This document shows, piece after piece, positions 341 through 12,455 of a DNA stretch of 12,455 nucleotides (positions are counted from its first letter, which is position 1; the number at the start of each line of letters is the position of its first letter). The notes under the pieces were generated by a model. The model was not told the origin of the DNA, made no database searches, and saw only the letters and a program-made list of their open reading frames with translations. The translations under genes and the position numbers were made by a program. This stretch comes from a virus. The stretch lies in UHGV virus genome UHGV-0098743, one strand, 5' to 3'.

Positions 341-1366
341 TTAACGGTTCCAGTTGAGATTGTGAAGCGGGTTTTTTGTCACTGCATCTTCCAGGTGGTC
401 GGGTGCGAAGTGGGCGTAAATCATTGTCATTTTAATATCGGCGTGGCCCAGAATATCGCGCAGTACCAGTATATTTCCGCCGTTCATCATAAAATGACTG
501 GCGAAAGTATGGCGCAGAACGTGGGTGCATTGGCCCTCTGGCAAGTCAATGCTTGCCCGCTTGACTGCACGCTCAAAGGCTTTTCTGCATGGCGTGAATA
601 ACTTCCCTCGGTTCTTTGGTAACTCGTCATACAGCGCCTGAGATATAGGAACCGTTCGGTTTTTCTTGCCCTTTGTTTTGGTGTAGGTGATTCGGTATTT
701 AGATAACTGATGGCCCTGCAGGTTTTCGGCTTCACTCCAGCGGGCGCCGGTAGCTAAGCAGATTTTTGCAATCATGAGCAGGCTGGGGTTTTCTGAATCA
801 GCGCAGGCATCCAGCAGGCGTTTAATTTCTTCCGGCGCCAGGAACGCCAGTTCCCCCTCTGCGATTTTAAATGTTGGAAGCCCGGCGAGTGGGTTGGGGG
901 CTGACCAGTGGCCCAGCTTTTTCAGCGTGCCAAAAACTGATGATAGGTTGCGTTGTTCAAGGTTTACCGTGCGGGGCTTAACTGGCGACATAGGCAAGCC
1001 ATCTTCATTTTTGACTTCACCTTTTAGGCGTGCTTCACGGTATTTTGTAAAGTCACCGGCAGTCAGCTCCGAGGCAATGGGATCACCCAGGCCATTACAA
1101 ATAATGTTAAGTTTTGCCATCAGGCGCTTGGGGTCAGCAAGAGTCTGTCCGTAAAGTGAATGCCACTGCTTAATTACTTCTGACAATTGGCGCCGATCAT
1201 CCTTTTCGCCTAGCCATGGCTTTTTGTTCACTTCATCCATTGTGAAGTTTTCGAATGCTATGGCCTCGCCTTTCGTCGCAAATTGCTTGCGCACGCGCTT
1301 GCCATCGCGCCCGCTAGGGTAGCACTCACACAACCATTTCCCGTTTGGCTGTTTTCTGATGGTCAT
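341..1366 (-). CDS. int: Tyrosine recombinase / phage integrase (P2 Int-like), 341 aa
   Basis: Full-length ORF; the C-terminal catalytic region has HVLRHTFASHF and LGHADIKMTMIYAHF (R-H-R-Y signature of tyrosine recombinases). Lies next to the ssrA-derived att core and is transcribed toward it, as in P2/186-type prophages. ATG at 1366..1364. Confidence 0.93.
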   Translation of the reverse strand: MTIRKQPNGKWLCECYPSGRDGKRVRKQFATKGEAIAFENFTMDEVNKKPWLGEKDDRRQLSEVIKQWHSLYGQTLADPKRLMAKLNIICNGLGDPIASELTAGDFTKYREARLKGEVKNEDGLPMSPVKPRTVNLEQRNLSSVFGTLKKLGHWSAPNPLAGLPTFKIAEGELAFLAPEEIKRLLDACADSENPSLLMIAKICLATGARWSEAENLQGHQLSKYRITYTKTKGKKNRTVPISQALYDELPKNRGKLFTPCRKAFERAVKRASIDLPEGQCTHVLRHTFASHFMMNGGNILVLRDILGHADIKMTMIYAHFAPDHLEDAVTKNPLHNLNWNR

Positions 1367-1367
1367 A

Positions 1368-2000
1368 TCAAAGGCTCTTAATAACTTTTAAGACGTGGCC
1401 TACAACCTCGATATCATCCAGGCTGCACTCAAAAGATGATTCATCTTGATGAACTACCAATCTGTTTCCGGGGATACGGGTTAACTTCACAATACTTTTT
1501 ATTCCATCAATATCGACCAACCACACCCCATTTACTGGTGGTGTTTGGCTGCGATCCACTAGGTATGAATCACCACCGGTATTTACTAAGAGTAAGTTAC
1601 TGGAATTGGAAGGAAGCAAGCTGCTGTCAATGATTGCTTTACCTGTATCCACCAAAGAGCCGCTAGAAAGTGTCACTTTGTCAATTTCGGGAGAAACAAG
1701 GTCAGAAAGGTGTTTAACTTTGCCGGAGTTCACGAAATTGATATCTTTTTGCATGTCAATGTTTGAACCCGGCTCGCCTTGCCCTGTGGTAAGCCAGAGT
1801 AAAGAAACGCCTGTCTCAAGAGCGCACTGAATTACCCATTCTGCAGGGAAACTATCTCTTAAGTATCTGTTTGCCATGGTGCTTTTAGATGCGCCAAGAT
1901 GGTCGCACAATTGCTGTCTTGATTTGAAATCGTAGGCTGCCATTAGCCTATGGATGGCCTCTCTACCCCCGGTGTTCTCGCCTGTCTTTACTTGTATCAT
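1368..2000 (-). CDS. cI: CI-like immunity repressor (phage 186 CI type: N-terminal HTH, C-terminal S24-peptidase-like fold), 210 aa
   Basis: N-terminal segment QQLCDHLGASKSTMANRYL looks like an HTH. The C-terminal half has the topology of lambda CI/LexA C-domains (GGDSY, VKL, VVGHVLKV). Its stop lies 1 nt from the int start (cI-int operon) and it is divergent from the cox/cII operon. Whether the Ser/Lys dyad is catalytically competent cannot be judged by eye. Confidence 0.8.
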   Translation of the reverse strand: MIQVKTGENTGGREAIHRLMAAYDFKSRQQLCDHLGASKSTMANRYLRDSFPAEWVIQCALETGVSLLWLTTGQGEPGSNIDMQKDINFVNSGKVKHLSDLVSPEIDKVTLSSGSLVDTGKAIIDSSLLPSNSSNLLLVNTGGDSYLVDRSQTPPVNGVWLVDIDGIKSIVKLTRIPGNRLVVHQDESSFECSLDDIEVVGHVLKVIKSL

Positions 2001-3951: not shown

Positions 3952-4808
3952 GCACTATTCTGAAATGGGCGGGAAATAAAACCTCCATCATGCCGGAACT
4001 GATTAAGCATCTTCCTGCTGGCACGCGACTGGTTGAACCTTTCGCGGGTTCATGCGCTGTAATGATGGCGACAGACTATCCTCATTATCTTGTCGCGGAT
4101 ATTAACCCAGACCTGATAAATCTTTTTAAGCATATTGCATTTGACTGCGAGAAATTTATTTCAAATTCAAAAGGATTCTTTTCAGGCACAAATAGCGCTG
4201 AGTCTTATTACAACATCCGTCAGGATTTTAATCATTCGGCTGAAACCACCGATTTCTGGAAAGCTGTATTTTTCCTTTATCTTAATCGCCATGGTTATCG
4301 TGGGTTGTGCCGCTATAATTTGAGCGGTCATTTTAATGTCCCTTACGGTAATTATAAAAATCCGTATTTTCCTGAAAGTGAAATACGCGCTTTTGCAGAA
4401 AAGGCTCAACGCGCAACGTTTATCTGTGCCAGCTATGACGAAACACTGGCGCTGCTGCAGGCTGGTGATGTTGTTTATTGTGATCCGCCATACGATGGCA
4501 CATTTAGCGGTTATCACACTGCCGGTTTTACAGAAGACGATCAGTATCATCTGGCGTCTATTCTTGAGCGCCGGTCATCAGAAGGTCATCCGGTTATCGT
4601 GTCCAACAGCGACACGTCCCTGACCCGTTCGCTTTATCGTAATTTTACCCGCCATCGCATCACTGCAAAGCGCAGCATGGGTGTGGCTGCCGGCGAGAGT
4701 AAATCTGCAGCAGAAATCATCGCCACAAAATCAGCTGGCTGGTTTGGTGTCGATTTGGCGTCCGGTCCAGATATCTCGGTGGAAACTGAGGTGCGGGCGT
4801 GGCAGTGA
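3948..4808 (+). CDS. dam: DNA adenine methyltransferase (Dam-like, N6-adenine, D12 class), 287 aa
   Basis: N-terminus [38 protein letters not shown] parallels E. coli Dam (LKWAGGK...LVEPFVGAGSV); catalytic motif [15 protein letters not shown] (DPPY). ATG at 3948 overlaps the upstream stop (ATGA). The six-frame ORF starting at 3834 is an in-frame upstream extension and is unlikely to be the true start. Confidence 0.9.
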
Positions 4809-6238
4809 GTAAATTCACATTACATAATGCACCAACCACCGGCGGCTCGAATGAGGCCGCCGTGGCCTTTTCATGGAATAACCCCAAAAAAGCGGTTAAC
4901 CCATATCTGGACCCGGCGGAAGTTGCGCCGGGGTCTGCGCTTTCAAACCTGATTGCTCTTTACGCTGCGGATAACGAGCAGGAGCAGCTGCGCCGTGAGG
5001 CGCTGAGCGATGAGGTCTGGGAACGCTATTTCTTCAATGAATCCCGTGATCCTGTCCAGCGCGAAATGGAGCAGGACCGGCTGATTAGTCGTGCCAAAAT
5101 GGCGCGCGAGCAGCAGCGTTTTAATCCCGATCTGGTCATTCTGGCTGACGTTAACGCCATGCCGTCCCATATCAGCAAGCCTCTGCTGGAGCGGATTAAA
5201 TATTTCCATAGCCTGGGCAGAGCAAAAGCCTATTCCCGCTACCTGCGCGAAACAATTAGGCCCTGTCTTGAGCGGCTGGAGCGCGTGCGTGACAGTCAGG
5301 TGTCTGCCTCTTTCCGGTTCATGGCAAGTCATGACGGGCTGGAGGGGCTGCTGGTACTGCCTGAAATGAATCAGGATCAGGTCAAGCGTCTTTCCACGCT
5401 GGTTGCGGCTCATATGAGCATGTGTCTTGATGCGGCCTGCGGTGATCTGTTTGTCAGCGACGATGTTAAACCAGAAGAAATCCGCCAGGCATGGGAAAGG
5501 GTTGCAGCAGAGGCGATGCGCCTTGAGATCATCCCGCCTGCGTTTGAGCAGTTACGCCGCAAAAAGCGTCGACGCAAGCCGGTGCCCTATGAACTGATCC
5601 CACCGTCGCTGGCGCGGATGCTGTGCGCGGACTGGTGGTATCGCAAATTGTGGCAGATGCGCTGCGAGTGGCGGGAGGAACAGCTGCGTGCTGTCTGCCT
5701 GGTCAACAAAAAAGCGTCCCCGTATGTCAGCTATGAAGCCGTGATCCACAAGCGCGAGCAGCGCCGCAAATCGCTGGAGTTCTTCCGCTCACATGAGCTG
5801 GTCAACGAAGACGGTGACACGCTGGACATGGAAGACGTGGTGGCGTATGTCCGCAACAACCCGGATAAGCTGCACCTTTTCGTTGATAACGGCTCACTGG
5901 TGGCAACCGGTGCCAGCTCTATGTCATGGGAATACCGCTACACCCTGAACGTTGTGATCGAGGATTTCAGCGGCGACCAGAATCTGCTGATGGCTCCCGT
6001 GTTGCTGTGGCTCAGCGAAAATCAGGCGGACGCCATCAACAACCCGGAGCTGCGCGAAAAACTGTTCACCTTTGAAGTGGATATTCTGCGCAATGATGTG
6101 TGCGATATCAGCCTGAATCTGCAACTGACGGAGCGTGTACTGGTCAGCACTGACGGCGGTATCTCAACGGTTGAGGCGGAGCCAGAACCCGACGAGCCAG
6201 AAGAAATGTGGACGGTGAAACGTGGAAAATCTGCATAA
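4799..6238 (+). CDS. Hypothetical protein, 479 aa, in the position where P2/186 carry replication gene A; function unknown
   Basis: Long ORF with host-like codon usage, GTG start overlapping the dam stop. I could not find a Walker A, HUH or other catalytic motif. Contains the basic stretch [17 protein letters not shown] and an acidic C-terminal tail [11 protein letters not shown]. Its stop overlaps the S-like gene by 17 nt. Confidence 0.7.
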
Positions 6239-6668
6239 AGTGGATGAGTGGCTGACAGCGCTGCTGGCGAATCTGGAGCCGGCTGCGCGTCAGCACATGA
6301 TGTGTGAACTGGCGCAGCAGCTGCGTCGAAATCAGCAGAACAACATCCGCCTGCAGCGCAACCCCGACGGAACCGGCTACGAGCCGCGCCGGGTAACAGC
6401 CCGCAGCAAAAAGGGGCGCATCAAACGCCAGATGTTTGCAAAACTTCGCACCACCAAATACCTGAAAGCTGCAGCGAGCGCGAACTCTGCGAGCGTGCAG
6501 TTTGTGGGACAAGTGCAGCGTATCGCTCGGGTACACCATTACGGCTTACGTGATCGTGTTAGCCGCAATGGACCATTAGTAATTTATAGAGAACGAAGGT
6601 TACTTGGATTCAATGAGAATAATGATTGCATTAAAAATATATTAATTATGTCTTTATTTAATACATAA
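6222..6668 (+). CDS. S: Phage virion morphogenesis / tail-completion protein (P2 gpS / Mu gpG family), 148 aa; C-terminus possibly altered by the downstream insertion
   Basis: Pattern [28 protein letters not shown] ... [20 protein letters not shown] resembles the gpS/gpG family as I remember it. The last ~20 codons ([18 protein letters not shown]) lie in abruptly AT-rich DNA. Confidence 0.55.
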
Positions 6669-6680
6669 TGTATCGTGGTA

Positions 6681-6718
6681 AAAAATAGTAAAGCCAAATG
6701 GCTGGCTAATTGCCAGCC
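6681..6718 (-). terminator. Putative Rho-independent terminator downstream of the ariB-like gene
   Basis: Stem GGCTGGC (6700-6706), loop TAATT, stem GCCAGCC (6712-6718); on the minus strand it is followed by the U-rich tract AUUUGGCUUUACUAUUUUU. Confidence 0.5.
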
Positions 6719-6724
6719 GTAACT

Positions 6725-7582
6725 CTATGAAATTAGTGATATTTTTTGATTGTAGTAATCATAATCCGCATGTTCTTCAGTAAAGAATAATTCAAAAGCC
6801 GTTAGCATATTTGAATAAAAACTATCTTTTGATATTGCAGTTTTTCTCTCATTTTTAGCTAAGTAATTGGTTATGAATCTTAATGATGCTGAGAATAGAA
6901 AGTGCCCCTTTATCCAATGCGTTATGCAAGTGTTGGCAGGAAATTGAATGTTGTTTTTTTCTGCTAACCCTACATTTCTGAAATCATCAGGAAGGGTTTG
7001 AATATAAGCATTTATCTTATCTTGACATGTTTTGTAAGAGTTTTTTGATTGCATAAATCTATCGCATGAATCACCTACTACGGAATAGCCACGCTGATTT
7101 AAATGATTGTAAATATCTAAGGCAATTAGGTCTTCAATATTGTTATAAAACTCTAATAGCCAGGAGTTTATATTTATTCCTTGGATTTCTTTGGCACTGT
7201 ATCTTCCCATGTGTTTTAACACACGGGATAGGACTTTCTCATCGACTATAGTATTTTCAATTGAGTAACCTTTTGTATAGATGATGTTTGTATGATTTAC
7301 TAAGTTGGATGAAAAATGATTCAGATCTGCATCGCGGGCAACAATTGCGTTTATTTGTCCTGATGTGATTCGCTCAATATAAGGTTCTAATGCTTCACAC
7401 CCTCCAACTTCTTGCACTTCAACACTTAGTCGACCATTTTTTTTGAAAACTATTTCCCAAAATCCAATATCATCCTCACCTTCAACATATACCATGATAT
7501 CAGCATCATAAAACATGCTGATAACATTTTCCGCCTCGTCAGACCAATTAAAGTTATCTGTTCGAATCTCATTATTGGACAT
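6725..7582 (-). CDS. ariB: DUF4435/TOPRIM-like (OLD-family nuclease-like) protein, AriB-like effector candidate of a PARIS-type defence pair, 285 aa from ATG 7582 (alternative GTG start at 7612)
   Basis: N-terminal motif MVYVEGEDD followed by AIVARDAD, i.e. the acidic E...DxD arrangement of TOPRIM/OLD nuclease domains. AT-rich codon usage. Its start overlaps the upstream ATPase gene stop by 11 nt (ATGTCCAATAA). Domain identity is from memory of family motifs, not a search. Confidence 0.75.
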   Translation of the reverse strand: MSNNEIRTDNFNWSDEAENVISMFYDADIMVYVEGEDDIGFWEIVFKKNGRLSVEVQEVGGCEALEPYIERITSGQINAIVARDADLNHFSSNLVNHTNIIYTKGYSIENTIVDEKVLSRVLKHMGRYSAKEIQGININSWLLEFYNNIEDLIALDIYNHLNQRGYSVVGDSCDRFMQSKNSYKTCQDKINAYIQTLPDDFRNVGLAEKNNIQFPANTCITHWIKGHFLFSASLRFITNYLAKNERKTAISKDSFYSNMLTAFELFFTEEHADYDYYNQKISLIS

Positions 7583-8825
7583 TGACAAGTTTCTCCATGT
7601 TAAAAATTGCACTCCTGTATTTTGAAGCTACTTCTGGAGAATGTGTGGCAGCTATTACTTGTGCATTGGGATTGAGTTTTTTGATTGCTGGGATAATGTT
7701 TCTTTGCCATTGAATATGTAGGGAGAGTTCAGGCTCATCTGTTAGGAAAATATATTGTTTTTCTCTTTGTAATAGGGTTTCTATGAATAAAATAAGTAAT
7801 TGCTTCTCACCTGAAGATAAATTTTCCTGAATTATTGGTCCGTAAGTATTCTTTATGGAAAGTATTCCGCCTTGAAAGTCAAATTCCTTATCAGTAATAA
7901 ATTCTTTTAAAATACTTAAAAATTGTTCAATGGGAGCGAAAACTAAAGATGTTTTTTCTTTAGATTTTAAAGACATTCTAATTATTTTTTGTGTCTTTCT
8001 TAGCGCTTCAATTGAGCGGATGTCAAAACCATCTTTTTTATTTTGTTTTAATTCTGCAATGGTGTGATCAATAGTGTCAACATGGAAATTTATTTTCCGA
8101 CGGACATTCATATCAATAGCGTTTAGTTGTGTGTACGCACTTAAAAGGTTTTGTTTTTCTTCCTCCTTGTTAAATTGAATGTTGTACGCCTTATCATCAA
8201 TATCATCTTTACTATATAGAATAGATGCTAAAACTTCTTTTTGAAGTTCTAATGCAATATCTCTCGCTCGTTGAGATAATTCAAGTTGATATTTTGTTAA
8301 TTCCTGCATTAATTCTGATAGTTTATAATCGACAGGGTTGATAAAGCGAGAGCCGTATTTGTCTCTAACCTCAAAGTCGTCACTATTCCTTAGTCTATAG
8401 ACGGATAAAGATGAGAGTGAAACCAGTTTTGCTAATTCTGCTCTTAACTCCTCAGTCTCTTCTTGTGCTCTGCGTCTATAACTGAGGGAGATTCTTCTGT
8501 CATCGGCGTTGAATAGTCGGATGGTATGTTTTTTTGATGAAAGTTGATACTCTATTTTAGAGAACGGTGATGCATCACTCTCGATTTTCTTAATTTTTAT
8601 TGTCTTAGTTTTCTTTTTGTCCTTTAGTTTTATTTCGGCACTATTGAAATCATTGTTGTTAATGCCATCAAGGTCAATTGATAAAATTGAATGCAAAATA
8701 TTCATAAAAGTTGTTTTGCCGGTTCCATTCCTTCCAATGATGATGTTTACATCATCATTAAAAGAGCAAAGAGCATTTAATCTTTGCCAAAAACCATTGA
8801 TAGCGATGCTTTGTATTTTATACAT
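7572..8825 (-). CDS. ariA: ABC-type ATPase (AAA_15/AAA_21, OLD/SMC-like), AriA-like sensor candidate of a PARIS-type defence pair, 417 aa from ATG 8825 (TTG at 8828 possible)
   Basis: Walker A GRNGTGKTT near the N-terminus; a long insert domain; C-terminal ABC signature-like SSGEKQLL, Walker B IFLTDEPELSLH and H-loop ATHSPEV. Strong RBS AAGGAG 7 nt before the ATG. AT-rich. Confidence 0.82.
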   Translation of the reverse strand: MYKIQSIAINGFWQRLNALCSFNDDVNIIIGRNGTGKTTFMNILHSILSIDLDGINNNDFNSAEIKLKDKKKTKTIKIKKIESDASPFSKIEYQLSSKKHTIRLFNADDRRISLSYRRRAQEETEELRAELAKLVSLSSLSVYRLRNSDDFEVRDKYGSRFINPVDYKLSELMQELTKYQLELSQRARDIALELQKEVLASILYSKDDIDDKAYNIQFNKEEEKQNLLSAYTQLNAIDMNVRRKINFHVDTIDHTIAELKQNKKDGFDIRSIEALRKTQKIIRMSLKSKEKTSLVFAPIEQFLSILKEFITDKEFDFQGGILSIKNTYGPIIQENLSSGEKQLLILFIETLLQREKQYIFLTDEPELSLHIQWQRNIIPAIKKLNPNAQVIAATHSPEVASKYRSAIFNMEKLVNVQ

Positions 8826-8868
8826 CAACTTACTCCTTGTTTTGGTTGAGTCGAACTTATCAACTGTT

Positions 8869-8886
8869 TGTACCAGCTATAACACA
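8869..8886 (+). promoter_or_regulatory. TGT-N12-ACA dyad upstream of V: possible Ogr/Delta-type late-activator site (P_V-like)
   Basis: TGT (8869-8871), 12 nt, ACA (8884-8886), read directly. P2 late promoters carry this dyad near -55. Here the dyad centre is only about 56 bp from the V start codon, so the spacing is tight and this may be coincidence. Confidence 0.3.
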
Positions 8887-8915
8887 ATTATGCTGGTTCG
8901 TACGAATCATTTCAA
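8886..8915 (-). promoter_or_regulatory. Candidate sigma70 promoter for the ariA-ariB operon
   Basis: On the minus strand: TTGAAA (8915..8910), 18-bp spacer, ATAATT (8891..8886); predicted leader about 55 nt to the ariA ATG. Confidence 0.35.
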
Positions 8916-8933
8916 ATGTTCAATATAGGCAGT

Positions 8934-9512
8934 ATGAACACACAACTTACCGAAATCATGCGCCTTATCACCAATCTGATCCGTACCGGCACTGTGACCG
9001 AAGTGGACCGGAAAAAGTGGCTGTGTCGGGTGAAAGTGGGCGAGCTTGAAACTAACTGGATTAACTGGCTGACGCTGCGCGCCGGTGGTGCCCGTACATG
9101 GTGGTGTCCGTCGCCGGATGAGCAGGTGGTGTTGCTGAGCATGGGCGGCAATCTGGAAACCGCTTTTGTGCTGCCCGCTATCTACTCCAATCAGTTTCCG
9201 CCACCGTCGGATTCCGTGGACGGCTGCGTGACGGAGTACCCGGACGGGGGATGGTTTGAGTATGAACCCGCCACCGGACGGTGGCATGTCAGGGGCATCA
9301 AATCCATGGTGATCGAGGCATCAGACAGTGTCACCTACAAAACCGGTGAGTTTGTGGTGGAGGCTGACACCACGCGCATTAACAGCGAGGTGGTGATCAA
9401 TGGCGGCGTCACCCAGGGCGGCGGCGCAATGAGTTCTAACGGGATCGTAGTTGATGACCATGAGCATACTGGCGTTCTGAAAGGCGGCGACAACACGGGG
9501 GGACCGGTATGA
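8934..9512 (+). CDS. V: Baseplate assembly protein V (P2 gpV-like spike), 192 aa (ORF opens at 8916; 8934 is the homologous start)
   Basis: N-terminus MNTQLTEIMRLITNLIRTGTVTEVD parallels P2 gpV (MNTLANIQELARALRNMIRTG...); conserved WLTLRAGGARTWWCPS and C-terminal HEHTG. Stop overlaps the W start (ATGA). Confidence 0.85.
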   Translation: MNTQLTEIMRLITNLIRTGTVTEVDRKKWLCRVKVGELETNWINWLTLRAGGARTWWCPSPDEQVVLLSMGGNLETAFVLPAIYSNQFPPPSDSVDGCVTEYPDGGWFEYEPATGRWHVRGIKSMVIEASDSVTYKTGEFVVEADTTRINSEVVINGGVTQGGGAMSSNGIVVDDHEHTGVLKGGDNTGGPV

Positions 9513-9868
9513 CGTTGTATATCGGTATGAGCAGGAATGACGGGCAGACCATTGCAGATACAGACCATCTGCGCCAGTCGGTGCGGGATATTCTGCTGAC
9601 GCCGCAGGGCAGTCGTCTTGCGCGTCGGGAATATGGTTCCCTGCTGTCTGCCCTGATAGACCAGCCGCAGACCCCGGCGCTGCGCCTGCAGATTATGTCT
9701 GCGGTCTATGTGGCGCTGAACCGTTGGGAGCCGCGCCTTACGCTGGACTCCATCACCATCAACGGCAATTTTGATGGCTCTATGGTGGTTGAACTTACCG
9801 GACACGGCAATAACGGCGCACCGGTTTCCCTTTCCGTATCAACAGGAGCAGACAATGGCAGTCATTGA
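9509..9868 (+). CDS. W: Baseplate assembly protein W (P2 gpW / GP25-like), 119 aa
   Basis: Size and position between V and J; gpW-like N-terminal region (DLRQSVRDILLTPQGSRLARREYGS). Confidence 0.85.
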   Translation: MTLYIGMSRNDGQTIADTDHLRQSVRDILLTPQGSRLARREYGSLLSALIDQPQTPALRLQIMSAVYVALNRWEPRLTLDSITINGNFDGSMVVELTGHGNNGAPVSLSVSTGADNGSH

Positions 9869-10763
9869 CCTTTCCCGGCTACCGCCGCCGCAGATTGTGG
9901 ATGTGCCGGACTTTGAGGCATTGCTGGCAGAACGCAAGGCCGCCTTTGTGGCCCTCCATCCGGCTGATGAACAGGAGGCTGTTATGCGCACGTTAGCGCT
10001 GGAGTCAGAACCTGTCACCAAACTGCTGCAGGAAAATACTTACCGCGAAATCCTGCTGCGTCAGCGAATTAATGAGGCTGCGCAGGCGGTCATGGTGGCC
10101 TATTCCATGGGAAATGACCTTGAACAACTGGCAGGTAACTGCAACGTGAAGCGCCTGACGGTAGTCCCTGCAGATAATGACTCGGTGCCGCCGGTCGCCG
10201 CAGTGATGGAAAGTGATGAAGCATTACGCCAGCGCATTCCTGCAGCATTTGAGGGGCTGTCCGTTGCAGGGCCGACGGGAGCCTATGAGTTCCACGCCAG
10301 AAGTGCCGACGGGCGGGTGGCTGATGCCAGCGCAACCAGTCCGGCACCGGCAGAGGTGGTGCTTACCGTGCTGAGCCGTGAGGGGGACGGTACGGCAGGG
10401 GCTGACCTGCTGGCGGTGGTTGAGCAGGCGCTTAACAGTGAAAAAGTTCGCCCGGTGGCAGACCGCCTGACGGTGCGCAGCGCAGAAATTATTCCGTACA
10501 GCGTGGACGCAACGATCTTCCTTTATCCGGGGCCGGAGGCTGAGCCGGTGATGGCAGAAGCAAAAGCCAGTCTGCAGAAATACATCGCCAGTCAGACGCG
10601 GCTGGGACGTGATATCCGCCGCAGCGCCATTTATGCCGCGTTGCATGTGGAGGGCGTCCAGCGTGTGGAGCTGGCGTCCCCGCAGGGTGATGTGGTGCTG
10701 GATAAGACGCAGGCGGCATCCTGTACTGAATGGAGCATCATCAACGGGGGCACGGATGAATAG
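9855..10763 (+). CDS. J: Baseplate assembly protein J (P2 gpJ-like), 302 aa
   Basis: Starting at ATG 9855 (RBS AGGAG at 9844-9848) gives 302 aa, the same as P2 gpJ; conserved order V-W-J-I-H. The longer ORF from 9771 is an in-frame extension overlapping W. Confidence 0.88.
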   Translation: MAVIDLSRLPPPQIVDVPDFEALLAERKAAFVALHPADEQEAVMRTLALESEPVTKLLQENTYREILLRQRINEAAQAVMVAYSMGNDLEQLAGNCNVKRLTVVPADNDSVPPVAAVMESDEALRQRIPAAFEGLSVAGPTGAYEFHARSADGRVADASATSPAPAEVVLTVLSREGDGTAGADLLAVVEQALNSEKVRPVADRLTVRSAEIIPYSVDATIFLYPGPEAEPVMAEAKASLQKYIASQTRLGRDIRRSAIYAALHVEGVQRVELASPQGDVVLDKTQAASCTEWSIINGGTDE

Positions 10764-11361
10764 CCTGTTGCCGCCGGGTTCGTCGCCGCTTGAGCGCCGA
10801 CTGGCGCAGACCTGCAGCGGGATTTCCGATCTGCAGGTATCGCTGCGTGATTTGTGGAATCCGTCAATCTGCCCGGTCAGATTCCTGCCTTATCTGGCCT
10901 GGGCGTTTTCTGTTGACCGCTGGGATGAGAGCTGGACAGAAAGCGTCAAGCGCCGCGTTGTGCAGGACGCTTTTTATATCCATCAGCACAAGGGGACAAC
11001 CAGCGCCGTGCGGCGCGTGGTGGAGCCGTTCGGCTTTCTGATCCGCATCATTGAGTGGTGGCAGACTGGCGAAATACCAGGGACGTTCCGTCTGGATATT
11101 GGCGTGCAGGACCAGGGCATAACAGAAGAAACCTATCTGGAGCTGGAGCGCCTGATCGGTGACGCCAAACCGTGCAGCCGTCACCTGGTTGGTATGTCCA
11201 TCAACCTGCAGACAGGTGGCCCGTATTTTGTGGGCGCAGCCACCTACACCGGCGAAGAAATCACGATCTACCCGTATATCAACGAAACCATTATTTCCGG
11301 CGGCACCGCTTATGAGGGCGGGGCGGTCCATGTTATTGACACGATGAGAGTGAACCCATGA
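10756..11361 (+). CDS. I: Baseplate/tail protein I (P2 gpI-like), 201 aa
   Basis: Position between J and H; ATG at 10756 overlaps the J stop; the longer ORF from 10609 is an out-of-context extension. Confidence 0.82.
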   Translation: MNSLLPPGSSPLERRLAQTCSGISDLQVSLRDLWNPSICPVRFLPYLAWAFSVDRWDESWTESVKRRVVQDAFYIHQHKGTTSAVRRVVEPFGFLIRIIEWWQTGEIPGTFRLDIGVQDQGITEETYLELERLIGDAKPCSRHLVGMSINLQTGGPYFVGAATYTGEEITIYPYINETIISGGTAYEGGAVHVIDTMRVNP

Positions 11362-12455
11362 GCGCAAAATTTTACACCCTGCTGACGGATATCGGCGCGG
11401 CGAAACTGGTAAGCGCCGCCGCGCTCGGTGTCCCACTAAAAATTACCCATATGGCGGTGGGCAGCGGTGGTGGTATGCTGCCCACACCCAACGCGCAACA
11501 GACCGCGTTAGTGGCTGAGGAACGCCGCGCAGCGCTGAATATGCTGTATATCGACCCACAGAACAGCAGCCAGATTATTGCTGAGCAGGTGATCCCGGAA
11601 AATGAGGGCGGGTGGTGGATTCGTGAAGTCGGCCTGTTTGATGAAACAGGTGCGCTAATTGCTGTGGGAAACTGCCCGGAGAGCTACAAGCCGAAGCTGG
11701 CGGAGGGCAGCGGACGCACGCAGACCGTGCGAATGGTACTGATTACCAGCAGCACGGATAACATCACCCTGAAAATTGACCCCGCTGTGGTTCTGGCAAC
11801 CCGCAAATATGTGGATGATAAGGTGCTGGAACTTAAGGTGTATGTGGATGACCTGATGGCAAAGCATCTTGCTGCGGTTGATCCTCATTCGCAATATGCA
11901 CCAAAAGACAGTCCGACTCTGACAGGCATGCCTAAAACGCCAACGCCACCGGCAGGAAACAACAGCACCCTGATTGCCAGTACAGCCTTTGTACAGGCCG
12001 CTATTCTTGCCATGATAGGTGGCGCACCGGCAACGCTGGATACGCTGAAAGAAATTGCGGCAGCTATCAATAATGACCCGAATTTCAGTACCACCATTAA
12101 CAATGCGCTGGCACTGAAAGCACCACTGGCAAGCCCAGCCCTGACCGGAACGCCAACGGCTCCGACTGCGGCGCAGACTGTGAACAATACGCAGATTGCC
12201 ACTACAGCATTTGTGAAGGCAGCTATTGCCGGGCTGGTTGGTTCATCGCCGGAGGCGCTGGACACACTGAATGAACTGGCAGCTGCGCTGGGGAATGATC
12301 CTAACTTTGCGACAACAGTGATGAACGCGCTGGCGGGGAAACAGCCCCTCGATGCCACTTTGACTAACCTCAGCGGGAAAAGTGTTTCAGCCCTTCTACA
12401 ATACCTTGGTTTGGGAGAAGCGGCAACGAGGAACGTCGGAACGGATACCGGGCAA
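11358..12455 (+). CDS. H: Tail fibre protein H (P2 gpH-like), 5' part only; the ORF runs off the end of the window
   Basis: N-terminus MSAKFYTLLTDIGAAKLVSAA...MAVGSGGGMLP...ESYKPKLAEGSGRTQTVRMV...YVDDKV closely parallels the conserved P2 gpH N-terminal domain. No stop through 12455 (366 codons). Absent from the ORF track only because it is open-ended. Confidence 0.88.
   Translation, partial: MSAKFYTLLTDIGAAKLVSAAALGVPLKITHMAVGSGGGMLPTPNAQQTALVAEERRAALNMLYIDPQNSSQIIAEQVIPENEGGWWIREVGLFDETGALIAVGNCPESYKPKLAEGSGRTQTVRMVLITSSTDNITLKIDPAVVLATRKYVDDKVLELKVYVDDLMAKHLAAVDPHSQYAPKDSPTLTGMPKTPTPPAGNNSTLIASTAFVQAAILAMIGGAPATLDTLKEIAAAINNDPNFSTTINNALALKAPLASPALTGTPTAPTAAQTVNNTQIATTAFVKAAIAGLVGSSPEALDTLNELAAALGNDPNFATTVMNALAGKQPLDATLTNLSGKSVSALLQYLGLGEAATRNVGTDTGQ
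11910..12353 (+). repeat. Tandem duplicated ~74-codon tail-fibre repeat module inside H
   Basis: Units starting SPTLTGMPKTPTPP... (11910) and SPALTGTPTAPTAA... (12132) align over 74 aa with about half the residues identical, including TAFV.AAI, LDTL.E.AAA, NDPNF.TT and NALA.K. Confidence 0.7.

Follow-up and report, generated by a model that had tools for sequence, protein, structure and literature searches.

Here, we present an analysis of a 12,455-nucleotide (nt) stretch of UHGV virus genome UHGV-0098743 (referred to as the window), which is the left part of an Escherichia coli P2-like (Fels-2/186-type) prophage. We found that positions 6575-8933 of the window are, in all likelihood, an accessory ("moron") cassette of the PARIS type that sits in the slot between the phage genes S and V and replaces the DNA from the end of S to the start of V, and that would act by a mechanism resembling that of the PARIS system of E. 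coli B185. An earlier note on this DNA had drawn attention to an AT-rich island at this place but left its cargo unnamed; the cargo is an AriA/AriB (PARIS-type) gene pair on the minus strand. Altogether, our findings partly support the interpretation offered in that note. The cassette and its borders have the following features (aa, amino acids).

6222-6668, plus strand: gpS-like tail completion/virion morphogenesis gene (S), 148 aa (Pfam Phage_tail_S, 1.7e-35)
6575-6668, plus strand: alternative AT-rich C-terminus of S, codons 118-148, contributed by the island
6727-6681, minus strand: predicted intrinsic terminator of the ariAB operon, with a hairpin at 6727-6689 that begins at the ariB stop codon and a U-run at 6688-6681
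6725-7582, minus strand: ariB-like gene for a predicted DUF4435/TOPRIM nuclease, 285 aa (Pfam DUF4435, 5.4e-26)
7572-8825, minus strand: ariA-like gene for an ABC/SMC-type ATPase, 417 aa (Pfam AAA_15 and AAA_21)
8869-8886, plus strand: TGT-N12-ACA box, the predicted Ogr/B-type activator site of the late promoter P_V, from its position relative to V and the P2 annotation
8915-8887, minus strand: predicted sigma-70-like promoter reading into ariA, with a -35 element TTGAAA (8915-8910), a 17-nt spacer and a -10 element CATAAT (8892-8887)
8934-9512, plus strand: gpV baseplate spike gene (V), 192 aa, the right anchor of the slot (Pfam Phage_base_V and Apex)

The AT-rich island is real, sharp and discrete. 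In 300-nt intervals, the GC content is 0.55-0.59 at 6001-6600, falls to 0.27-0.38 at 6601-8850 and returns to 0.51-0.60 from 8851 onward. A two-change-point maximum-likelihood fit run over 4800-11500 places the steps at 6574 (support interval of two log-likelihood units, 6556-6580) and 8959 (8927-8986), separating segments with GC contents of 0.564, 0.327 and 0.588 (log-likelihood gain 197). These data bear out the island proposed at about 6580-8930: the GC content is 0.33 at about 6575-8933 compared with 0.56-0.59 in the flanks, and the sliding GC plot shows a discrete step. The left step lies inside S, in which the GC content of third codon positions (GC3) is 0.56-0.72 in codons 1-117 and 0.16 in codons 118-149. 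At 6570-6576, the nucleotide identity to the S genes of relatives in which the slot is empty drops from ~80% to ~38%; past this junction, the amino acid identity to the same relatives drops from 85% to 35% (11/31 residues). The earlier note had placed the switch in the last ~20 codons of S; it is indeed inside S, but it extends over about 31 codons. On the right side, a return to the flanking composition just upstream of V had been proposed, and alignable homology to every relative restarts exactly at the V start codon at 8934. The empty-site relatives, an enterotoxigenic E. coli (ETEC) prophage, Yersinia phage MLG42, Salmonella phage Fels-2 and SopE-phi, have S and V flanks that are 87-92% identical to those of the window, a GC-rich S tail and an S-V gap of 68 bp, in agreement with the suggestion that the cassette replaced the native 3' end of S and the S-V spacer. 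No direct repeats or target-site duplications bracket the island, neither the short ones that had been considered for the junctions nor others; the repeats listed are short, internal and typical of AT-rich DNA. Therefore, a transposition-type insertion is unsupported.

S codons 1-117 are native and GC-rich, and the remaining codons come from the island. The earlier note described the resulting C-terminus as a low-complexity tail. Rather, we found that S in the window has the same length (148 aa) as in the empty-site relatives Fels-2, MLG42 and locus L001. In the empty-site relatives, the native tail ends in ...RRLLGVNEEVETVTRDTLLRWLAG and is encoded by GC-rich codons; the tail in the window is rich in residues with AT-rich codons, retains the (RR)LLG-x-N motif and spaces its hydrophobic residues as the native tail does. 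In DNA of equal composition, the chance that a reading frame stays open for 31 codons and stops at the same length is ~0.0035. Among 62 loci, almost every S protein has 147-149 aa irrespective of its tail; where the slot is occupied, most GC change points are located between 5 and 134 nt ahead of the S stop codon, with four loci outside this range. At the nucleotide level, the S tail of the window is 59% identical to the tails at two other PARIS-bearing S-V loci versus 38% to native tails. Non-native S tails are also present beside cargo in SEN8 and vB_EcoM-813R9, two phages deposited as virus records, which suggests that such tails work. Judged by its sequence, the S tail of the window is an alignable alternative C-terminus of the same length and not random read-through. 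A protein search for a donor with the 44-aa S tail returned only short partial S fragments.

The two cargo genes are intact open reading frames (ORFs) on the same strand, and the start of ariB overlaps the end of ariA by 11 nt. Rousset et al. (PMC9122126) detect PARIS as a gene for an AAA_15 (at least 32 bits) or AAA_21 (at least 27 bits) ATPase adjacent to a gene for a DUF4435 protein (at least 27 bits); for the pair in the window, these scores are 76.8, 72.1 and 92.2 bits, respectively. The best PADLOC models are AriA (1e-36) and AriB (9.4e-23). Among solved structures, the one nearest by sequence to the ATPase is AriA (8ux9/8v45, E-value 1.4e-17), followed by retron and Septu PtuA ATPases. 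The ATPase contains a Walker A motif (GRNGTGKTT with G31, K37 and T38), an ABC signature (LSSGE, 336-340), a Walker B motif (DEPE with D363 and E364) and an H-loop (THSP with H395), and these motif regions are alignable to AriA in 8ux9. In the DUF4435 protein, E34, D38, D84, D86 and E109 are invariant in 30 homologues; their order mirrors that of the metal-binding residues E26, D30, D88, E90 and E122 of B185 AriB (PMC11464382), an equivalence by pattern and order and not by residue-level superposition. The AlphaFold (AF2) model of AriB has a predicted local distance difference test (pLDDT) score of 91.8, and its best Foldseek matches are the AriB chains 8v46_D and 8ux9_A (probability 1.0, template modelling (TM) score 0.55-0.57, 11-12% identity). 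The next-best folds are OLD-family TOPRIM regions, but over the full length the fold matches AriB and not OLD or GajA (probability 1.0 versus at most 0.97; TM score 0.55 versus at most 0.25). Altogether, we class the pair as a distant member of the PARIS family. Two other assignments were rejected. In Septu, PtuA is paired with the HNH nuclease PtuB, while the partner in the window is a DUF4435 protein without an HNH domain. In the case of OLD and Gabija, the island has two separate ORFs and no helicase gene, OLD TOPRIM regions are secondary fold matches only, and PADLOC and Foldseek both rank AriA/AriB first.

The pair appears to have its own control signals. The predicted promoter matches the consensus at 10 of 12 positions and is the top match in 6400-9100; the two hexamers, as well as the distance between them, are conserved at loci L010 and L011, whose cassettes are 74-78% identical, and a Shine-Dalgarno sequence (AAGGAG) is located 7 nt upstream of the ariA ATG at 8825. 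A promoter-like site on the minus strand just upstream of V is present at 11 of 43 occupied and 0 of 19 empty loci, a comparison on which we do not rely since this DNA is AT-rich. At the other end of the operon, the terminator that the earlier note had located at 6681-6718 is present on the minus strand. Here, a terminator scan gives a match at 6718-6700, and the RNA fold has a free energy of -19.8 kcal/mol (z = -4.9; none of 200 shuffled sequences reached this stability). The 6727-6689 hairpin lacks a following U-run on the plus strand.

The promoter that had been proposed for the cassette at 8886-8915 is likewise present on the minus strand; however, the stretch at 8869-8933 also holds P_V and thus is not a cassette promoter only. 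The Ogr/B-dependent late promoters of P2-like phages share the consensus TGT-N12-ACA (PMC3931495). In the P2 record, the annotated pV activator site has its centre 55.5 nt upstream of a transcription start located at the V start codon, and the geometry in the window is the same, with the box centred at 8877.5 and the V ATG at 8934. In 54 of the 62 loci listed, the distance from the start of the box to the V ATG is 64-65 nt. At empty sites, it lies within a few bases after the S stop codon, and the sequence around it is unrelated between loci and AT-rich at occupied ones. The pattern by itself is not significant (2 matches in the window versus about 3 expected); its weight comes only from the fixed position across relatives and from the P2 annotation. 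The other match in the window (12383-12400) lies in the tail-fibre region and is consistent with chance. V is annotated as V at loci L001-L012. Based on these sequence comparisons, the 65 bp upstream of V are the phage's own late promoter P_V, from which V would be transcribed as a leaderless mRNA starting at ~8934. The minus-strand cargo promoter overlaps the core of the plus-strand, activator-dependent P_V (8869-8933). The two may compete, linking the expression of the defence genes to the late development of the phage.

Several observations weigh against a close functional likeness to B185 PARIS or against parts of the proposed cassette. In PADLOC, PtuA-type ATPase models score nearly as high as the full-length AriA models. 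AriA can be aligned to B185 AriA only around its N-terminal Walker A motif and over its C-terminal third, and not in the middle, which forms the trigger-binding pores in B185. With only 11-12% identity, AriB is remote from the characterised AriB, and a search of PDB by sequence returned 0 chains (phmmer at E-value cutoffs of 0.001 and 10, and a 30-sequence profile at a cutoff of 1); accordingly, AriB is connected to the characterised AriB only via the Pfam and PADLOC family models and the fold. The trigger, oligomeric state and RNA target of the B185 system would therefore not be transferable with confidence: because AriB is so distant and the middle of AriA cannot be aligned, a trigger other than that of B185 is likely, and a substrate other than that of B185 is possible. 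The cargo promoter is based on its consensus only, and such matches arise easily in AT-rich DNA (6 found versus 11 expected from shuffles over the region). Finally, the prophage in the window is defective (see below), and selection on S and P_V may already be relaxed.

An alternative that we regard as unlikely is that the pair is an ABC ATPase-TOPRIM defence system of the wider OLD/Gabija/PARIS class that works differently from B185 PARIS, possibly with another trigger and another substrate, for instance by DNA nicking or on another RNA, so that "PARIS" would describe the architecture only. The low identity and intermediate TM score of AriB, the lack of a PDB match by sequence or profile search, the unalignable middle of AriA and the OLD C-terminal TOPRIM regions as next-best folds are all compatible with this idea. 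By contrast, the full-length fold match to AriB rather than to OLD or GajA speaks against it; PARIS is also what one would expect from the arrangement as two overlapping genes, from their sizes and from the Pfam and PADLOC assignments, and there is no Gabija-like helicase partner.

The S-V slot has different contents in different relatives. In a census anchored on V, with one genome per species and limited to V proteins close enough to the query for detection, 49 species-level loci have both S and V, of which 16 are empty (68-79 bp) and 33 are occupied (570-3,810 bp). The median GC content is 0.35 in the occupied gaps versus 0.58-0.60 in the flanks, the cargo is encoded opposite to the late-gene strand at nearly all of the 43 occupied loci referred to above, and cargo ORFs of at least 70 aa form 35 sequence clusters. 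As the earlier note had anticipated, other genomes carry different cargo at the same junction, and much of it is defence-related. The cargo found elsewhere in the slot is the following.

PARIS-type pairs
Full Septu pairs (PtuA 1e-139, PtuB 1e-72; loci L026, L034 and L036)
A CAP12/Pycsar-type TIR protein (PADLOC candidate PDC-S35)
FRG-domain proteins (PDC-S15)
A KAP nucleoside triphosphatase (PDC-S49)
A SIR2 protein, and HEPN/ApeA-like proteins
An EcoRII restriction enzyme with a Dcm-like cytosine methylase in a 3.8-kb gap (L037, Erwinia typographi)
A HigB/HigA toxin-antitoxin pair (L052, a Pantoea metagenome-assembled genome (MAG))
An EEP-family nuclease, and DUF2971 together with DUF5677
Several membrane proteins and proteins without a match

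A related ariAB pair also occupies S-V in a deposited Peduoviridae phage. These data support that S-V is a broad defence hotspot, as had been suggested; the slot as such was already known as the orf30 region of P2. In E. coli S56 (L011, 2194-4240), a related PARIS-type cassette is present at S-V as four fragments (two DUF4435 and two ATPase pieces) and is apparently decaying through frameshifts. We also noticed a 410-bp contig of a Myxococcus assembly (L061) that contains the end of S, a 68-bp spacer and the start of a V with 86% amino acid identity to enterobacterial V; most likely, this contig is a contamination of that assembly.

Members of the ariAB clade to which the pair in the window belongs are found in three variable slots of P2-like prophages, i.e., at S-V (L070 and L076; E. 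coli and phage vB_EcoM-813R9), between gpQ and gpA, and beside cI. In a Serratia marcescens prophage, an AriB with 73% identity is encoded in the gpQ-gpA hotspot (L067-L069), and a Yersinia copy of ariAB adjoins the cI gene (L072-L074). The Serratia copy has 75.6% nucleotide identity to the window from 8828 to 6724 only, i.e., over just the two ORFs, while the S-V copies of E. coli 2014C-3075 and a Klebsiella MAG also have the flanks in common with the window. Accordingly, what moves from slot to slot is the ariAB coding block; the S tail with the terminator, and the promoter with the P_V core, look like slot-specific adaptors. Diverged S-V cassettes have ariAB genes with 74-78% nucleotide identity and contain a related S tail. 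The cassette had been described as recently acquired. The empty-site relatives support that it was acquired; however, a recent acquisition is unsupported, given that the nucleotide identity between S-V versions is down to 59-78% and that nearly all cargo in the slot is AT-rich. For exchange within the slot, we infer homologous recombination in S and V as the simplest route.

Based on these findings, we propose the following model. Since P_V takes up the whole native S-V spacer of only 68 bp, the cassette is not inserted into neutral DNA. Rather, the exchanged block would extend from codon ~118 of S to the V start codon. Spanning the end of S and P_V, this block must therefore supply a working S C-terminus and a P_V with its box at the conserved distance. 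Between related prophages, the block would move by homologous recombination in the conserved S and V genes, and the ariAB block would also move between P2-like slots. Encoded on the strand opposite to the late tail genes and equipped with its own promoter and terminator, the two-gene PARIS-type abortive-infection system could be expressed while the prophage is repressed, without depending on the late operons. In E. coli B185, AriA forms a hexamer that sequesters three AriB subunits, with trigger-dependent release (PMC11464382); AriB is kept inactive by AriA until a phage protein binds AriA in an ATP-dependent manner; once free, AriB forms dimers that cut tRNA-Lys(UUU) together with a small number of other tRNAs, which halts translation and aborts the infection (PMC9122126, PMC11464382, PMC12409363). 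By analogy, we propose that AriA oligomers keep AriB inactive here and that an infecting phage provides a protein which binds AriA in an ATP-dependent manner. AriB would then be released, dimerise and cut host tRNA, so that translation would halt and the infection would be aborted.

A more far-reaching possibility, which we consider improbable, is that S-V is a fourth, uncatalogued P2-like hotspot in which the cassettes are functionally coupled to the phage and not merely inserted. Each cassette would then come with a particular form of both the essential S C-terminus and the P_V core promoter, activator binding and firing of P_V could shut off the defence genes during the phage's own late development, and cassette-specific S tails could help the phage to avoid its own cargo.

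Turning to the prophage that carries the proposed PARIS-type cassette, the gene order R-S-[cargo]-V-W-J-I in the window is as in relatives and in P2. The other genes are as follows.

341-1366, minus strand: integrase gene
1368-2000, minus strand: CI-type repressor gene
Between the CI-type repressor gene and the gpA::gpR ORF: genes for a CII-like protein and then a Dam-type methylase
4799-6238: gpA::gpR fusion ORF (Pfam Phage_GPA at residues 193-356, then P2_Phage_GpR at residues 348-464)
Downstream of V: W, J, I and the start of the tail fibre gene

In the gpA::gpR ORF, the N-terminal part of the replication gene A is joined in frame to the C-terminal part of the tail gene R. The junction at 5839-5842 has a 4-bp GTGG microhomology, and compared with the intact E. 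coli S1 prophage ~10.7 kb is deleted, comprising the rest of A and the portal, terminase, capsid and lysis genes. This junction was found in 0/5,426 complete E. coli genomes. The deletion implies that the prophage in the window is defective, and it has nonetheless kept the defence cassette. The stretch at 6000-9600 is present in 9/5,426 complete E. coli genomes with 99.5-99.9% identity; the prophage of E. coli S1, the sole copy whose wider context was inspected, has the same cassette and is otherwise intact. Neither tRNA genes nor Rfam families were found in the window. Milder dips in GC content are present within the Dam-type methylase gene (to 0.39 at 4051-4500) and in the repressor/early-control region (0.39-0.45 at 1351-2400); both are less sharp than the S-V island.

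The persistence of the cassette despite the loss of 10.7 kb of essential genes would also fit an addiction or toxin-antitoxin-like module, in which AriA as the antitoxin and AriB as the toxin mainly stabilise the prophage and do not act against phages. In line with this idea, the PDB depositors term AriA an "antitoxin", Pfam describes AAA_21 as a putative AbiEii toxin domain, and another genome has a bona fide HigB/HigA pair in this slot. However, characterised PARIS systems require a phage trigger and are non-toxic alone (PMC9122126, PMC11464382), and the other S-V cargo is dominated by defence families. Addiction and defence are not mutually exclusive roles; as the main function, we find addiction quite improbable. 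The defective state of the prophage also raises the question of whether the cassette is an inactive, decaying remnant that is carried passively. The gpA::gpR fusion and the fragmented cassette of E. coli S56 point in this direction, but in the window neither ORF is truncated, no catalytic motif has been lost and the two are 99.8-100% identical to the copies in intact prophages, which makes decay of this cassette very improbable. The idea that the AT-rich stretch is ancestral to the lineage or a composition artefact has in its favour only that the same sequence is fixed in nine near-identical prophages, and it is almost certainly wrong, being refuted by the close relatives with their GC-rich S tails and 68-bp GC-rich spacers, the 16 of 49 empty loci, the unrelated genes at occupied loci and the log-likelihood gain of the segment fit.

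PARIS and the P2 orf30 variable region are both known, and the cassette itself is no surprise. The importance of these findings lies elsewhere. The unannotated S-V cargo is a ready list of candidates for new defence genes, for which S and V can serve as search anchors, and borders inside an essential tail gene and an essential late promoter show how a tightly packed phage genome accommodates accessory genes. Moreover, the AriB clade is very far from the characterised one and therefore offers a useful test of the generality of the tRNA-cleavage mechanism of PARIS.

Comparison with known systems places the cassette as follows. PARIS of E. coli B185, which was found in a hotspot of P4-like satellites (Rousset et al. 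2022, PMC9122126) and for which the structures 8UX9 and 8V45-8V49 are available (Burman et al. 2024, PMC11464382), likewise consists of adjacent genes for an AAA_15/AAA_21 ABC ATPase and then a DUF4435/TOPRIM protein (~285-305 aa); ATPase motifs, TOPRIM acidic residues and the full-length AriB fold correspond, and in both cases the system occupies a small variable slot of a P2/P4-family mobile element. The two differ in that AriB is only distantly related, AriA has 417 aa here versus 464 aa and aligns at its ends only, and the slot is S-V of a P2-like phage here versus the P4 psu-int/cos hotspot. P2 Old and Gabija GajA share the logic of an ABC ATPase with a TOPRIM nuclease; however, they combine both domains in one polypeptide and Gabija needs the GajB helicase, whereas the window encodes two proteins and no helicase. 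With respect to location, the orf30 region is one of three regions of P2-like phages in which foreign genes are common (PMC6823313, PMC3091744). In P2 (NC_001895), S is followed by a putative terminator, Orf30 on the opposite strand (261 aa, GC content 0.34, non-essential), the pV activator site and V. The window has the same layout, with AT-rich cargo on the opposite strand and with presence/absence and replacement of cargo among relatives. In contrast to P2, in which Orf30 is a single protein without a Pfam match and the S tail is of native composition (GC content 0.51), the cargo in the window is a two-gene defence system and its junction lies ~94 nt inside S. The defence hotspots named for P2-like phages by Rousset 2022, Vassallo 2022 (PMC9519451) and Egorov & Atkinson (10.1101/2024.10.15.618418) are gpA-gpQ (old/tin), Z/fun and tail protein-cI, and S-V is not among them. 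Similar to these hotspots, S-V is small (0.5-4 kb), has a high turnover, lies between two conserved phage genes and holds varied known and candidate defence systems; unlike them, it has its borders inside an essential gene and inside an essential late promoter.

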